From an uncultured Candidatus Rokubacteria bacterium (lineage in GTDB: Bacteria; Methylomirabilota; Methylomirabilia; Rokubacteriales; CSP1-6), in the NCBI GenBank assembly GCA_963771355.1, contig CAVYTA010000005.1:352001-416000 (forward strand): 64,000 nt of DNA. The letters run 5' to 3'. A program made the position numbers and the translations under genes. Shown in pieces: positions 21,260-27,315 of the stretch. Every line of letters begins with the position of its first letter. The first letter of the stretch is position 1. The notes beneath the pieces are model-generated. The model did not search any database. It was given only the letters and a program-made list of their open reading frames with translations, and was not told where the DNA came from.

Positions 21260-22645
21260 TCAGAGCTTGTTGAACCCGTTCAGCGCGGCGACCTTGTAGG
21301 CCTCGGCCAAGGTCGGGTAGTTGAAGACCGTGTCGCGGAAGTAGTCGATGGTGCCGTCCAAGGTCAGCACCGCCTGGCCGATATGGATGATCTCGGACGC
21401 GCCCTCTCCGATCACGTGGACGCCCAGCACCTTCCGCGTCAGCGGATCAAAAAGGATCTTGAGGAAGCCGATGTCGTCCCCGATGATCTGCCCGCGCGCT
21501 AGCTCGGCGTACTTCGCCATGCCGACCTCGTAAGGGATGCGCGCGCGGGTGAGCTCCTGCTCGGTCCGCCCCACCATGGAGATCTCCGGCACGCTGTAGA
21601 CGCCGTAGGGCAGCAGCTCGGGGCGGCTCACGCAGGGAAGGCCAAACATGTGGCAGGCGGCGAGCCGCCCTTGCTCCATGGAGGTCGAGGCGAGCGAGGG
21701 GAAGCCGATCACGTCACCGGCCGCGTAAATGTGCGGGACCGCGGTCTGGCCGGCGCCGTTGACGGCGATCCGTCCCCGCGAGTCGGCCTGGAGGCCCGCT
21801 GCCTCGAGGGCGAGCCCCTCGGTATTGGCCTGCCGGCCCACCGTGTAGAGGAGGGCATCCCCCTGCACGGTCTTGCCGCTTTCGAGGCGCGCCAGCACCC
21901 GGCCGCGCGCGTCGCGCTCGACGCCGATGACGGTCTCGCCGAGGCGGAAGGTCGCCCCCTGACGCCGCATGTGGTACGACAGCGCCTCGATCATCTCCTG
22001 ATCCAGGAAGTCGAGGATGGTAGGCCGCTGGTCGATCACGGTCACCGTGTGCCCCAGGGCGGTGAGCATGGACGCGTATTCCAGGCCGATAACGCCCGCG
22101 CCCACCACGATCGTCTGCTTGCCCAAGCTGTCCACGGTGAGGAGCTGGTCGGAGTCGAAGATGTGACGGCCGTCAAGCGGGATGCCCGCGCTATGCGCGG
22201 GGCGCGTGCCGCAGGCGATGAGGATCCGCTCGGCGGCCAGAGGAACCCCGCCACTGGGTGTCTCGACGACGAGGGTATGCGGATCGGCGAATCGCGCGGT
22301 GCCGTGGACGGTTTCGATGCCGTTGCGCTTGAGCTGGCTGCGGACAATCTCGGTCTCGCGGTCCAGCACGGTTCGCACCCGCGACACGAGGTCCGCCACC
22401 GAGATCCGGTCCTGCAGGGTGTAGTCGCGGCCATAGAAGGTCCGCTGACGGAAGCCCGAGAGATAGAGGATGGCTTCCCGGAGGGCCTTGCTGGGGATGG
22501 TCCCGGTATGGATGCAAACGCCCCCGATCATGTCGCGGCGGTCTACCACGGCCACACGCTTGCCGAGCTTGGCCGCGGCCACCGCCGCCTTTTGGCCGGC
22601 GGGGCCACTTCCGATCACGGCGAGGTCATAGAGGATATCGGGCAT
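21260..22645 (-). CDS. sthA: Soluble (Si-specific) pyridine nucleotide transhydrogenase
   Basis: IGSGPAG, GGVCIHTGTIPSKALRE (CxxxxT), STSMEQGR, C-terminal FNYPTLAEAYKVAALNGFNKL. Confidence 0.93.
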   Translation of the reverse strand: MPDILYDLAVIGSGPAGQKAAVAAAKLGKRVAVVDRRDMIGGVCIHTGTIPSKALREAILYLSGFRQRTFYGRDYTLQDRISVADLVSRVRTVLDRETEIVRSQLKRNGIETVHGTARFADPHTLVVETPSGGVPLAAERILIACGTRPAHSAGIPLDGRHIFDSDQLLTVDSLGKQTIVVGAGVIGLEYASMLTALGHTVTVIDQRPTILDFLDQEMIEALSYHMRRQGATFRLGETVIGVERDARGRVLARLESGKTVQGDALLYTVGRQANTEGLALEAAGLQADSRGRIAVNGAGQTAVPHIYAAGDVIGFPSLASTSMEQGRLAACHMFGLPCVSRPELLPYGVYSVPEISMVGRTEQELTRARIPYEVGMAKYAELARGQIIGDDIGFLKILFDPLTRKVLGVHVIGEGASEIIHIGQAVLTLDGTIDYFRDTVFNYPTLAEAYKVAALNGFNKL

Positions 22646-22722
22646 GGGCATCTCCAAAACGTCGGGTCGCGGCGGATGTTACCAGAATCGCACCGCTTCG
22701 TTTATGAAGGGTCAAGCATCTC

Positions 22723-22751
22723 TTGACAAATCCGACCGGGAAACGTCTAAT
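22723..22751 (+). promoter_or_regulatory. Putative sigma70 promoter of the reductase operon
   Basis: TTGACA-17bp-TCTAAT; the -35 lies in palindrome GTCAAG-N5-CTTGAC (22711-22727). Confidence 0.55.
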
Positions 22752-22760
22752 ACCGTTGTC

Positions 22761-22832
22761 ATGAGCCGATCTTCCATGGAATCGTGCTGTAAGTGCTTGC
22801 GATGTAAAGCGGAGTGGCTTCTCATAGCGTAG
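22761..22832 (+). CDS. Putative Cys-rich leader peptide (23 aa)
   Basis: MSRSSMESCCKCLRCKAEWLLIA*; 4 Cys in 7 codons, between promoter and terminator. Confidence 0.62.
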   Translation: MSRSSMESCCKCLRCKAEWLLIA

Positions 22833-22855
22833 CTTGTGGGCTGAGGCAGATGACC

Positions 22856-22887
22856 AAGCCGGGGAGCCCGTCCCCGGCCTTTGTGTT
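22856..22887 (+). terminator. Intrinsic terminator/attenuator in the 5' leader
   Basis: GCCGGGGA-GCCCG-TCCCCGGC followed by CTTTGTGTT, just before the reductase RBS. Confidence 0.7.
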
Positions 22888-22920
22888 CCTGGGTAGATTC
22901 GCAAGACGAGGGAGATGACC

Positions 22921-24642
22921 ATGGCCGAGGGCAATGGGGTTGTCGTGACGCCGGTGCCGCCCAAGGAAACCAAGGCTCAGCGGGCCGAGCGGCTCAAGGG
23001 CGCGCTCAATCCATGGACGGCCTACGCGGAGATCGAGCGGTTCGCCCGCGATGGCTTCGACTCGATCCCGCCGGAGTGGCTGAATACCTATTTCCGCTGG
23101 TGGGGCCTTTACACCCAGGGCGACGGCATCGGGGCGGTGGGCGGGACCGGCGGCGAGGGCAAGGCGCTCCGCTACTTCATGCAGCGGATTCGCATCCCGA
23201 ACGGCTTCCTCACCGCGACCCAGCTCCGCGCCATCGCCGGTCTCACCGAGCGTCATGCCCGCGGCGTGGCCGACCTCACGGTGCGCCAGAACATCCAGCT
23301 CCACTGGGTGCAGGTGGAGAGCCTGCCCGAGATCGTCTCGACCCTGTCCCGCGTGGGCATCACCACGATCGGCACCTGCGGCGACGTCACCCGCAATATC
23401 ACGGGCTGCCCGGTGGCCGGGGTCGACGCCGACGAGATCGCGGACGCCTCGCCCCTGGTGGAGGCCGCCACCGCCATGCTCAACGGAGCGCCCGAGTTCT
23501 ACAATCTGCCGCGCAAGTTCAAGGTCTCCATCGCCGGCTGCCGTGTGTGGTGCTCGTACCCGGAGATCAACGACGTGGGGCTCACCGCCATCCGCCATCC
23601 CGACTCCGGCGAGACGGGCTTCTCGCTGCGCGTGGGCGGCGGGCTCTCCACCGATCCGCATCTCGCCCCGCGCCTCGACGTCTTCGTGCGCTGGGACCAG
23701 GCCCTGGCGGTGTTGAAGGCGGTGGCCGAGATCTTCCGGGACAGCGATGTCCTCCGCGAGCACCGCGAGAAGGCGCGGCTCAAGTTCCTGTTCCTCCGCC
23801 ATGGCTGGACGGCGGAGCGGTTCCGCGCCGAGATCGAGGCGCGGCTGGGCCACGACCTGGCGCCCGCCGTACCCGAGACGCCGCCGGACGACGTGTATCG
23901 TGACCACGTGGGGCTGCACCAGCAGCGGCAGCCGGGCCTGACCTATGCGGGCTTCCCCATCCTCCGCGGGCGCCTCGATCCGGACACCATGCGGGCGGCG
24001 GCGGACCTCGCCGAGCGCTTCGGCTCCGGCGCGCTCCGCACCACCCACATGCAGAACCTGGTGATCCTCGACGTGCCGCGCGAGCGGGCGGCCGCGCTCA
24101 CCGCGGAAGCAGAGGCTGCCGGACTCGCCCTGTCCGCCTCGCCGTTCCGGCGTGGCACCGTGGCCTGCACGGGCACGGAGTTCTGCAAGATCGCGCTCAC
24201 CGAGACCAAGGGCTTCGCGCGGCACCTGGTGGAGGAGCTGGAGACGCGCCTGCCGGGCTTCGACCGGCACGTGAAGATTCACGTGACAGGCTGCCCGAAT
24301 TCCTGCGGCCAGCACTGGATCGCCGACATCGGGCTCGAGGGCAAGAAGGTGAAGGGCCCGGCCGGTCTCGAAGACGCGTACTACATCTGCGTGGGCGGGG
24401 GGCTGGGCCGGCACGCCTCGGTCGCGCGCCCGGTGGGCTTCCGCGTGCCCGCGCGCGAGACGCCCGCCGCCCTGGAGCGCCTGCTGCGCGCGTACCTGGA
24501 CCTCCGCGCGCCCGGCCAGAGCTTCCGGGACTTCGCGGCCGCACGCACCGACGACGACCTGCGGGCGCTCCTTGCGGGCGGGGCGGTGGGGGCCGTCGCC
24601 CGCGACCTGCCCGTGGCCGCCACCCCTCACAATCTCGAATAG
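22921..24642 (+). CDS. sir: Siroheme nitrite/sulfite reductase (ferredoxin-type, Sir/NirA family), probably sulfite reductase
   Basis: TVRQNIQ, CGDVTRN, LPRKFK, ACTGTEFC and GCPNSC cluster/siroheme ligands; siroheme genes follow. Confidence 0.88.
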   Translation: MAEGNGVVVTPVPPKETKAQRAERLKGALNPWTAYAEIERFARDGFDSIPPEWLNTYFRWWGLYTQGDGIGAVGGTGGEGKALRYFMQRIRIPNGFLTATQLRAIAGLTERHARGVADLTVRQNIQLHWVQVESLPEIVSTLSRVGITTIGTCGDVTRNITGCPVAGVDADEIADASPLVEAATAMLNGAPEFYNLPRKFKVSIAGCRVWCSYPEINDVGLTAIRHPDSGETGFSLRVGGGLSTDPHLAPRLDVFVRWDQALAVLKAVAEIFRDSDVLREHREKARLKFLFLRHGWTAERFRAEIEARLGHDLAPAVPETPPDDVYRDHVGLHQQRQPGLTYAGFPILRGRLDPDTMRAAADLAERFGSGALRTTHMQNLVILDVPRERAAALTAEAEAAGLALSASPFRRGTVACTGTEFCKIALTETKGFARHLVEELETRLPGFDRHVKIHVTGCPNSCGQHWIADIGLEGKKVKGPAGLEDAYYICVGGGLGRHASVARPVGFRVPARETPAALERLLRAYLDLRAPGQSFRDFAAARTDDDLRALLAGGAVGAVARDLPVAATPHNLE

Positions 24643-24707
24643 ACCGCAGGAGACGACGATGAGCGCGAGCCTTGGCGATCTCGCCCCCTGATGTCGGAGC
24701 CGGACCG

Positions 24708-25349
24708 GTGAGCGTTCCCTATCCGATCTTTCTCGACCTCGTGGATCGCCCCTGCCTGGTAGCCGGCGGCGGCCCCGTGGCCGAGGCCAAGGTGCGCGGG
24801 CTCCTCGCCGCGGGCGCGCGCGTCACCGTGGTGAGCCCGACGCTCACGCCCGCGTTGACCGCGCTCGCGGCGGAGGGTCATCTCACGCATCAGGCCCGCG
24901 AGTACGCGCCGGGCGATCTCGCGGGCTCTGCGCTGGCCTTCGCCGCCACCGGGGATCGCGCGGTGAGCCGGGCCATCCGGGCGGAGGGCCGGGCGCGCGG
25001 CGTCTGGGTCAACGCGGCCGATGACGCCGAGCACTGCGACTTCCTCCTGCCCGCGGTCTTGCGCCGGGGGGCGCTCGCGGTGGCGGTGTCGAGCGGCGGG
25101 GCCAGCCCCGCGCTCACGCGCGCCGTGCGTGACGAGCTGGAGCGTTATTTCCCGGCCGACTTCGGCGGCTTCGTGGAGGTGGTGGCCGCGCTGCGCCGCG
25201 AGCTCCGCGAGCGGGGCGCGCCGGTCACGGCCGAGGGCTGGCGGTCCGCGCTGGAGGACGAGCTGCGCGCGTGGTCGAACGGGAGCGGGGTGGGCGACGG
25301 GGCGCTCGGCGCCGGCGCGCGCCTCCGCTCGCGGCTGGAGGGCACGTGA
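24708..25349 (+). CDS. Precorrin-2 dehydrogenase/sirohydrochlorin ferrochelatase (CysG N-terminal type)
   Basis: YPIFLDL, LVAGGGPVAEAK, VNAADD, VSSGGASP; true start may be 24659. Confidence 0.9.
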   Translation: MSVPYPIFLDLVDRPCLVAGGGPVAEAKVRGLLAAGARVTVVSPTLTPALTALAAEGHLTHQAREYAPGDLAGSALAFAATGDRAVSRAIRAEGRARGVWVNAADDAEHCDFLLPAVLRRGALAVAVSSGGASPALTRAVRDELERYFPADFGGFVEVVAALRRELRERGAPVTAEGWRSALEDELRAWSNGSGVGDGALGAGARLRSRLEGT

Positions 25350-26209
25350 TCCGCGGGGAGCGCCCGGGGCCAGCGGAGCACGGGATGCCGGCGGAGCCAG
25401 CGAAGACAGTGGGGCGCGTGGCGCTGGTCGGCGCGGGGCCGGGTGATCCCGGCCTCATGACGGTGCGCGGACTCGCGCTGCTCCAGGCCGCCGAGGCGGT
25501 GGTCTACGATCGCCTCGTCGCGCCCGCGCTGCTCCTCGAGGCGCCACCCGCGGCGGAGCGCGTCTACGTCGGCAAGCGCCCAGGCGCCCACGAGGTGTCC
25601 CAGCCCGAGATCAACGCCATCCTGGTGGCGCTGGCGCGGCGGGGCCTCCAGGTGGTCCGGCTCAAGGGCGGCGATCCCTTCGTGTTCGGGCGGGGCGGCG
25701 AGGAGGCGGCGGCCCTGGCCGCGGCGGGGATTCCCTGCGAGGTGGTCCCCGGCGTGAGCGCGGCGCTGGCCGCCCCCGCCGCCGCCGGCATCCCGGTCAC
25801 CCACCGCGGCGTCGCCGCCTCGTTCGCGGTGATCACGGGCCACGAGGACCCTGCCAAGGGCGAGCCGACGGTGAACTGGAACGCGCTCGCCCACGCGGTG
25901 GATACGCTGGTGGTGCTCATGGGCACGGAGTCGCTGCCCGGTATCGCGCGAACCCTGATCGCGCGGGGCCGCCCCGGCGACACGCCCGTGGCGCTCATCC
26001 ATCGCGGCACGACGCCGGAGCAGGAGACCGTCGTCTCGACGCTCGATGCGCTCGCCGCGCTTTCCGGGCCCGTACCGCTCCCCCCACCCGTCACCGCGGT
26101 CATCGGCGACGTGGTGTCGCTGCGCGCCCACCTCGGCATCGCGCGTCAGGATAGTGATACCGTGTCTTTCCACCCTGATGCGCTCGTGACGCGTATCGAA
26201 AGGATGTGA
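25346..26209 (+). CDS. cobA: Uroporphyrinogen-III C-methyltransferase
   Basis: VGAGPGDPGLMT, RLKGGDPFVFGRGGEE, GIPVTHRG. Confidence 0.94.
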   Translation: MIRGERPGPAEHGMPAEPAKTVGRVALVGAGPGDPGLMTVRGLALLQAAEAVVYDRLVAPALLLEAPPAAERVYVGKRPGAHEVSQPEINAILVALARRGLQVVRLKGGDPFVFGRGGEEAAALAAAGIPCEVVPGVSAALAAPAAAGIPVTHRGVAASFAVITGHEDPAKGEPTVNWNALAHAVDTLVVLMGTESLPGIARTLIARGRPGDTPVALIHRGTTPEQETVVSTLDALAALSGPVPLPPPVTAVIGDVVSLRAHLGIARQDSDTVSFHPDALVTRIERM

Positions 26210-26211
26210 CC

Positions 26212-27315
26212 ATGAACCGTCGACAGCTCCTCAAGCTCGGCTTCGTCGCCAGCGGCACCTTCGCTGTTGGAGGGCTCGCGCGGCTCGGCACGCGGACGGC
26301 CTCGGCTCAGATCGGCTCCGTGCCCACGGTGGACCGGCTGGTCCTCACCAATGTCGTGGACAATATCTACGACGTCTTCGCCAAGGCGGGCCGGCTCGAC
26401 ACCATCACGGTGCAGCGCACGCCGGTGGGGCCCGCCCCGCTGCTCGCCGAGCACGGGCTCGCGTATCACATCGAGTCGCATCGCGGCGCCGAGCAGCGCC
26501 AGATCCTGCTGGACTTCAGCCTCACCGACATCAACCTGTTCAACAACTACCAGTCGCTCAAGGTGGATCCCTACGCGGCGGACGCCCTCATTCTGAGCCA
26601 CGGCCACCGGGACCACTACGGCGCGCTACCGACGCTGGCGCGGCTGGGGCAGGGGAAGTTCAGGACCGGCACCACCGTGTACGCGGGCGGCGAGGACACT
26701 TTCTGCGCGCGGGTGGTGGTGACCAACGCCGGGAACCTCGACCAGGGTCGGCTCGACGCGCCGGCGCTGGAGGCCCTGGGCCTGCGGGTCGCGCTCGCCA
26801 AGCAGCCGACGATCGTGGCCGGCCATGCCTTCACCTCGGGCCAGATCGCCCGTGTCACCGACTTCGAGCGGCCGCCGGGGTCGGCGCGGCTCGTCGCCGG
26901 GCCGCCGGACTCGGCCTGCGCGGTCACGCATTTCGGGCTCACCCAGGTGGTGGCCAATCCGGGCGAGCTGGTGCCCGATACCTTCCAGGGGGAGCATGCG
27001 ACCGCCTTCCACGTCCGGGACCGCGGACTGGTGGTGATCACCTCCTGCGGTCATGCCGGCGTGATCAACTCGGTGCGGCAGGTCCAGAAGGCTACCGGGA
27101 TCGACAAGGTCCACGCCGTCGTGGGTGGCTTCCATCTCGCCCCCGCCTCCGATGAAGTGGTGGCCAGGACGGTCGCCGCCTTCAAGGCCATCAACCCCGA
27201 CTACATCATTCCCATGCACTGCACCGGGCTCAACACCATCTTCGCCGTCCAGCGCGAGCTGCCGGCCAAGCTCGTGATGCCCTCGACCGGCACCCGGGTG
27301 CTCTTCGGCGCCTGA
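26212..27315 (+). CDS. Tat-exported MBL-fold metallo-hydrolase
   Basis: MNRRQLLK Tat motif; EHGL, SHGHRDH, SCGHAG, GGFHL, PMHCTG. Confidence 0.85.
   Translation: MNRRQLLKLGFVASGTFAVGGLARLGTRTASAQIGSVPTVDRLVLTNVVDNIYDVFAKAGRLDTITVQRTPVGPAPLLAEHGLAYHIESHRGAEQRQILLDFSLTDINLFNNYQSLKVDPYAADALILSHGHRDHYGALPTLARLGQGKFRTGTTVYAGGEDTFCARVVVTNAGNLDQGRLDAPALEALGLRVALAKQPTIVAGHAFTSGQIARVTDFERPPGSARLVAGPPDSACAVTHFGLTQVVANPGELVPDTFQGEHATAFHVRDRGLVVITSCGHAGVINSVRQVQKATGIDKVHAVVGGFHLAPASDEVVARTVAAFKAINPDYIIPMHCTGLNTIFAVQRELPAKLVMPSTGTRVLFGA

Follow-up and report, generated by a model that had tools for sequence, protein, structure and literature searches.

Introduction

Cysteine-responsive, leaderless poly-Cys open reading frames (ORFs) have been shown in mycobacteria, and the locus dissected there acts on translation, according to the accessible part of the report (Canestrari et al., 10.1101/834739). 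Like the leader in the window (by which we mean the whole 64,000-nucleotide stretch of Rokubacteria DNA analysed here), for which a nearly leaderless start is predicted, the mycobacterial ORFs in that part of the preprint are leaderless or nearly so, carry Cys codons near their 3' ends and precede sulfur or cysteine genes, with stalling relieving attenuation; they differ in having runs of consecutive Cys codons and, at the dissected locus, no terminator route, whereas the window leader features one invariant Cys codon, a terminator-like hairpin and a likely descent from a zinc-ribbon protein (10.1101/834739). For the Rhodobacterales, the available portion of one paper predicts a Cys-coding upstream ORF with an intrinsic terminator, uORFC-8-2, before cysS; the proposed logic equals that considered here, but its Cys codons are tandem, mostly UGC, and belong to a cysS leader of Alphaproteobacteria, as opposed to a UGU-biased leader of a sulfite reductase gene in Methylomirabilota (PMC8632094). 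Candidate cys leaders of Actinobacteria, too, are short ORFs ahead of cys operons with their Cys codons close to the stop, but in the accessible text they lack a conserved terminator hairpin, which the window leader has, and their authors suggest Rho-dependent termination (PMC1262725). The accessible part of PMC4833913 holds nothing on cysteine attenuation.

A first-pass annotation of the window, made from the sequence alone, had proposed a cysteine-sensing attenuator of the trp/his type before a reductase-siroheme operon. Classical trp, his and thr attenuators place their sensing codons near the leader stop, have an ORF-end strand that competes with the terminator, and end in a GC-rich hairpin with a U tail; they are also led by a Shine-Dalgarno (SD) sequence, carry runs of the sensing codon, and possess well-conserved 1:2, 2:3 and 3:4 helices. 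The window locus resembles them in the position of the predicted sensing codon, a candidate competing strand at the ORF end and the hairpin with its tail, but its ORF is predicted to be nearly leaderless, and it has one invariant Cys codon and a competing helix with modest support. The annotation knew of no earlier description for such an organism and operon, and our literature search likewise found no Cys attenuator in this lineage and no zinc-ribbon leader (most subscription journals lay outside its scope, and the supplements of PMC8632094 and of the preprint may list more), although the combination of a Cys-coding upstream ORF with an intrinsic terminator had been predicted elsewhere, to judge from the available part of that paper (PMC8632094).

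Anatomy of the locus

The features of the locus are collected in Table 1. The promoter-like site read by the first-pass annotation is present at its head, and the -35 element with a TCCGA-type spacer motif is kept in 10/10 leaders of the genus. The -10 element is non-canonical, missing the A at position 2, and it is for this reason that a sigma-70 scan, which called 0 promoters, passed over this site as well. When a matrix built from 73 homologous sites is run across the genome, the window site is the best match, with 34.7 bits against 24.0 for the runner-up. The spacer motif (22729-22745) is partly palindromic here and in homologous promoters, with consensus CCGATnGA, and is a possible repressor operator. 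Between hemB and a cysK-like gene of the same genome (G000:C6, about 1149440-1150000; L236) lies what we take to be an Rrf2-like gene, a candidate regulator acting at this promoter motif.

Table 1. Positions of the leader, its control elements and the downstream genes in the window
Feature	Position	Strand	Basis or remark
Promoter-like site	22723-22751	+	TTGACA 22723-22728, 17-nt spacer, TCTAAT 22746-22751
TCCGA motif in promoter spacer, possible operator	22731-22735		conserved in genus
Leader ORF, 23 codons, predicted nearly leaderless, 4 Cys	22761-22832	+	KCxRCKA matches C-terminal CxxC of zinc-ribbon leader of relatives
CGA-TGT (Arg-Cys), predicted sensing codon	22800-22805	+	9 codons 5' of stop; invariant in 10/10
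Predicted antiterminator 5' strand, last leader codons	22816-22825	+	pairs with 22861-22868 or 22850-22860
Spacer after leader stop	22833-22857	+	GGC 22845-22847 and GAC 22852-22854, remnant of long-leader GGC-GTC-GAC-GCC motif
Intrinsic-terminator-like hairpin (22858-22878) and U-rich tail	22858-22888	+	only consensus helix of genus alignment, 9 pairs
NirA/SirA-type siroheme reductase, likely sulfite reductase	22915-24642	+	likely start 22921; below all curated cut-offs
Siroheme synthase N-terminal domain (dehydrogenase/ferrochelatase)	24672-25349	+	TIGR01470 above cut-off
Uroporphyrinogen-III C-methyltransferase	25271-26209	+	TIGR01469 above cut-off; likely start GTG 25346 overlaps upstream stop
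Metallo-hydrolase-like ORF	26206-27315	+	weak match; overlaps previous stop; probably last gene of operon

The leader ORF reads as first annotated: its peptide and four Cys codons (TGC 22785, TGT 22788, TGC 22794, TGT 22803) are confirmed, with the UAG stop at 22830. An early ORF with at least four Cys codons also arises in 530/20000 dinucleotide shuffles of 22752-22857; the window locus alone is only modestly beyond chance, and conservation carries the case. Across the genome, TGT makes up 13.6% of Cys codons and CGA 7.2% of Arg codons. The genome encodes no tRNA-Arg(UCG) and a single tRNA-Cys(GCA), with which UGU is decoded by wobble. Such a wobble-read codon would plausibly be more sensitive to starvation, a property on which the literature search found no report. 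With only sub-threshold chance matches in Rfam for the window leader and 10 homologous loci, a riboswitch or T-box was rejected for lack of a covariance-model match. A crude scan found no other terminator-linked poly-Cys leader, and none was seen before three cysK-like genes. Contigs of four metatranscriptome runs leave 22769-22932 uncovered, an uninformative result, as contigs cannot show RNA ends.

The terminator that had been annotated before the reductase ribosome-binding site is likewise present, if with a weak tail. The window hairpin has 8 pairs, 7 of them G-C, followed by CTTTGTGTTC, with 5 T in 8; the region 22000-23500 has 2 terminator-like sites including this one, against 0.5 +/- 0.8 in shuffles. 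All ten genus leaders retain a G-C hairpin with U-rich bases behind it (about 30 nt 5' of the SD in the window), and long U runs are present in many homologues.

Conservation within the genus

The leader is carried by the seven genus genomes that have the reductase (G000, G002-G007) and by four metagenome contigs; another genome of the genus, G001, gives no reductase match. Ten leaders were aligned, L058 being omitted as a duplicate of L003. At a mean identity of 68%, the columns without variation comprise the -35 and its TCCGA-type spacer, CGATGT, TAG and the terminator stem. Throughout the ten, 9-10 codons separate the last Cys codon from TAG, and 9/10 have an in-frame start codon close to the predicted +1; in L002 the ATG is shifted 2 nt out of frame, for which an assembly error is possible. 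The start codon lies 0-4 nt from the +1, itself a prediction, in eight of the nine in-frame leaders and 13 nt from it in L005. From the frame, Cys codon and stop kept in 9/10 we infer that the leader is translated.

What the first-pass annotation had taken for the sensing element, a cluster of four Cys codons, is on the other hand not conserved. The genus leaders have from 1 to 4 Cys codons, of which only the last TGT is invariant. Consecutive Cys codons occur in the window and in L056 but are absent from 7/9 in-frame leaders, and L025 has a single Cys codon, whereas tested attenuators have two consecutive ones. The residues 3' of the invariant Cys are not conserved. Alignment of orthologues thus upholds one Cys codon and the terminator stem, but neither the Cys cluster nor the antiterminator originally proposed.

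In that antiterminator, 22816-22825 was to pair with 22850-22860, at the base of the terminator's 5' arm. All of these pairs are valid in the window. Together with an inner helix they make up the minimum free energy structure for 22816-22870, at -18.8 kcal/mol and with a pair probability of about 0.41; two other pairings come almost level with it. Across the ten genus leaders, however, 54% of cells are paired, a value reached in 228/500 shuffles. Pairing of 22816-22823 with 22861-22868 reaches 77.5%, a value equalled in 17/500 shuffles, and in 3 pairs both partners have changed, for a helix that was picked after inspecting folds, on 10 related sequences, and that fits L025 poorly. With this modest support, the ORF strand more likely pairs with the top of the terminator arm than with its base. 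Folds also allow 22832-22843 to pair with the arm. The predicted competing strand begins 13 nt past the T that opens the last Cys codon, and the footprint of a stalled ribosome would put its edge at about this point.

Folding under a ribosome footprint moves in the expected direction: masking the window leader to its stop weakens terminator-arm pairing from -9.1 to -3.0 kcal/mol, and the effect has the same sign by at least 1 kcal/mol in 9/10 genus leaders. Against shuffles of the same segment, however, 0/10 leaders reach p<=0.1 (median 0.55), and a second measure gives a gain of >1 kcal/mol in only 6/10, likewise not above shuffles. Because shuffled segments weaken arm pairing equally, the folding energies are no specific evidence. 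The unconstrained leader fold has a z of -0.09.

A zinc-ribbon leader in related genera

In most other genera sampled among the Rokubacteria and Methylomirabilota, the same position is occupied by an ORF of 55-75 codons with the pattern CxxC-x31-CxxC and a conserved KCxRCKxWVEVPL-type end, lying directly 5' of the reductase in 23/23 loci. Its profile matches 733 proteins. Within the phylum it has matches in 82/251 genomes, which belong to several of the families in the class, but in 0/7 genomes of the window genus (g1), and no full zinc-ribbon gene is found in the window's own genome. A pN/pS of 0.42 over 59 cores indicates protein-level constraint, with 0.26 at the C-terminal residues versus 0.59 in the N-terminal half. 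The AlphaFold model is an all-beta ribbon with pLDDT 95. No family name emerges from the searches made: 0/7 long leaders reach a Pfam cut-off, structure searches give a best E of 0.46 (Foldseek) and a best Z of 3.2 (VIA), and the ESM Atlas returns clusters without names and a Mut7-C lead.

The window peptide, through its KCLRCKA (KCxRCKA), aligns with the C-terminal half of this protein, a relationship that the first-pass annotation had not seen. In hhalign the match to the long-leader profile has a probability of 45.6 and an E of 2e-4 over 11 columns. Truncation of a zinc-ribbon leader ORF of about 60 aa, the ancestral state in the class, is the likely origin of the short leader. Codon choice in the long leaders follows the same halves: TGT stands at the two positions of the C-terminal CxxC in 42/64 and 47/64, as opposed to 8/63 and 1/63 at the N-terminal CxxC and 13.6% in the genome. 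The Arg codon of the Arg-Cys motif is mostly CGC (46/64).

Behind 59/64 dereplicated long leaders stands an RNA motif, GGC-N3-5-GTC-loop-GAC-N3-4-AGCCG, the GCC of which is the terminator base. In the window GGC and GAC are retained before AAGCCG, while GTC and the loop are lost, and no intact motif was found in its genome. A ribosome bound at the stop of a long leader would barely cover the motif, with a mean gain of 0.9 kcal/mol and one of at least 2 in 14/58. The outer helix is unsupported in long leaders (34/58 better than swapped flanks), and the 1:2 helix has no support in them.

Leader exchanges and targets

Among 107 GTDB genomes with a match, 99 loci were classified, partly by eye, and the counts are descriptive, as kin are not independent. 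A Cys-containing leader with a terminator pattern is present at 65/99: 45 long, 12 short Arg-Cys, 4 poly-Cys, 3 C-half and 1 N-half. Six have a leader without a terminator (5 long, 1 N-half), the five long ones near the reductase start; 17 have neither, and 5 are Sat fusions. The remaining 6 show a terminator pattern only; two of these, L144 and L192, look real by eye, such that real-looking terminators stand without a Cys leader in 2/67. In L144 and L164, leader deletions leave an ORF that runs across the terminator hairpin, and translation of this ORF would likely put the hairpin out of action.

A reductase tree was built from 62 of 63 chosen sequences (L110 was dropped as too short; FastTree local support, with deep nodes weak). 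Short or swapped leaders are scattered on it among long-leader neighbours, in the window genus, g15 (two places), g9, g14 (C-half) and g46. This distribution suggests that the long leader was cut to a short form about five times and swapped for a poly-TGT leader once. The independent short leaders in g15 and g9 retain the RCKA codons. The RNA motif is decayed in the window genus and in 3/4 g15 short forms, and retained in L055, L185 and L201.

The swap is seen in four g46 genomes, where a poly-Cys leader stands in place of the zinc ribbon, with 16/16 Cys codons TGT and no CGA in the run. These leaders share their GTC..GAC..AGCCG terminator with 7 congeners that have the zinc-ribbon ORF, and in 4/4 the top of the terminator arm is complementary to GGCCUUC at the ORF end, the layout proposed for the window. 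Poly-Cys leaders with intrinsic terminators also precede an orthologous reductase in a distant lineage, in which 13 loci were flagged (loci of this lineage are L081, L100, L101, L106, L108, L110, L112, L113, L120, L124, L127, L128, L134 and L135). Here 41/60 Cys codons are TGT (11 loci), and most loci have AAGGC..GAC just 5' of the terminator, resembling the Rokubacteria motif.

The long leader also heads other genes: CysH (L225), siroheme synthase plus reductase (L222) and an ORF without assigned family (L224). In L226 (710-1360) a peroxiredoxin gene lies directly behind a zinc-ribbon leader and terminator, and in other genomes a similar gene lies next to the reductase in divergent orientation. 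In g35, where 0/15 genomes have a reductase match, the leader, with a terminator, stands before a beta-carbonic anhydrase in 4/7 fetched loci (L216, L217, L219, L220). The 163-aa enzyme (L216:3632-4120) is most like Rv1284 and also resembles carbonyl sulfide hydrolase; it possibly serves sulfur scavenging from carbonyl sulfide.

The downstream operon

The reductase SD, GAGGGAG (22908-22914), suits the second ATG better than the one at 22915. The nearest solved structure is M. tuberculosis NirA (1zj8, E 2e-99), which we take to reduce sulfite, and the K-x-K motif that marks sulfite reductases is present. Orthologues are fused to Sat or adjoin CysH and rhodanese genes. Sulfite, the substrate first suggested, is thus the likely one in the window as well. 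In-frame fusions of a Sat-like ORF with the reductase, about 970-1030 aa long, occur in several Rokubacteria (L013, L017, L026, L060-L067, L209-L215). A nitrite reductase was considered and rejected, as paralogues L029 and L030 (36-41% identical) have a different leader and the window enzyme retains K-x-K. The leaders of these two, probably nitrite reductases, are hairpins that we presume to be ANTAR-like.

After the reductase, an SD-led ATG opens a 10-codon ORF (24659-24691) in a different frame from that of the siroheme synthase N-terminal ORF, which probably starts at GTG 24708; L002 has a similar out-of-frame ATG. No match to PAPS/APS reductase (PF01507, CysH) was found in the 99.8% complete genome G000, which does have cysK-like genes, and sulfite in this organism may therefore come from sources other than sulfate.

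Proposed mechanism and alternatives

We regard the window element as a cysteine-sensing, ribosome-mediated transcription attenuator, with a probability of roughly 0.7. From the observed anatomy, conservation, codon bias, leader swaps and targets we infer its successive steps: translation, stalling at UGU, a competing helix, and termination and its direction. Transcription would begin near 22757, with a ribosome loading at 22761. If charged tRNA-Cys is short, this ribosome would pause at the Cys codons, above all at UGU 22803 behind the rare CGA, covering the RNA to about 22815 and leaving 22816-22823 free for the 5' arm of the terminator. Once on that arm, the free strand would delay termination, and RNA polymerase would enter the reductase and siroheme genes. 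If cysteine is ample, the ribosome would instead reach UAG 22830 and cover the competing strand and the first bases past the stop, whereupon 22858-22878 would fold and transcription would end near 22885. The operon would in this way be transcribed only when cysteine is scarce. What stands of the attenuation first proposed is carried by the Cys-to-stop distance, the TGT bias, the poly-Cys swap and the sulfur genes; its four-Cys cluster and its version of the antiterminator are not supported.

The classical attenuator model fits the short and poly-Cys leaders, and the long leaders less well. The poor coverage of the RNA motif on long leaders and their unsupported outer and 1:2 helices, along with constraint over the full length of the protein and a motif that has decayed in several truncated lineages, make it conceivable that the folded protein has a role. 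We tentatively entertain a dual use of the ancestral leader, in which the C-terminal UGU codons would sense Cys-tRNA while a 54-residue zinc-ribbon protein would bind the GGC-GUC/GAC-GCC RNA, or act in trans, to enforce termination; the window genus would then have dropped the fold and the RNA site, keeping CGA-UGU as a minimal sensor.

Three other readings compete with cysteine-sensing transcription attenuation. Leader translation could govern the terminator in response to something other than Cys-tRNA, be it an Arg-Cys arrest peptide, slow decoding of CGA (reporting arginine or the general translation rate), or a thiol or metal signal to which the Cys residues respond. In the genus CGA varies no more than TGT does, the genome has no tRNA-Arg(UCG), L025 makes do with a single Cys, and the strongest constraint on the long leaders falls on their C-terminal residues (0.26 vs 0.59), as it does in arrest peptides. 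We nonetheless consider this unlikely, given that residues past the Cys vary in the genus, that the g46 swap is a plain TGT run, and that 46/64 long leaders use CGC. A little less likely still, the ORF would be a decaying remnant of the zinc ribbon, the hairpin a constitutive partial terminator or one controlled by a protein in trans, and sulfur control would be exerted at the promoter motif. That motif does occur at loci without any leader, Sat-reductase fusions included, an Rrf2-like gene precedes cysK in the genome, relatives have often lost the leader or the terminator in part or altogether, and the folding tests are non-significant. A mere remnant would, however, be hard to square with a frame, stop and Cys-to-stop distance that persist while flanking codons diverge, with the RCKA codons kept by independent truncations, or with terminators standing without a Cys leader in just 2/67.

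The least probable of the three has the leader sense cysteine but control translation initiation of the reductase by SD masking, as at mycobacterial Ms5788, and not termination. This is the mode of the one dissected Cys attenuator, as far as the accessible part of that report goes (10.1101/834739), and it would suit the weak U tail and the persistence of five terminator-less long leaders near the reductase start. The G-C hairpin with U-rich bases that 10/10 genus leaders keep, about 30 nt before the SD, and the long U runs of many homologues argue instead for termination.

Significance

A terminator-based cysteine attenuator has so far been a prediction, and the only dissected cysteine attenuator that we found acts on translation, going by the accessible part of its report (10.1101/834739). 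What sets the present case apart is its likely derivation from a folded zinc-ribbon leader, together with the reduction to one invariant codon that is predicted to do the sensing. Natural variants on one terminator, with a folded, a one-Cys or a poly-Cys leader, make three questions testable: the minimum number of codons for an attenuator, the preference for UGU, and the birth of leader peptides from protein genes. Should the dual use of the ancestral leader prove true, an attenuator leader would also be a folded regulatory protein, one repeatedly simplified into a classical attenuator. For an abundant uncultured soil lineage there is a gain in annotation as well: sulfite is the likely substrate of the reductase, and the leader-headed CysH and carbonyl sulfide hydrolase-like genes hint at the sources of its sulfur.
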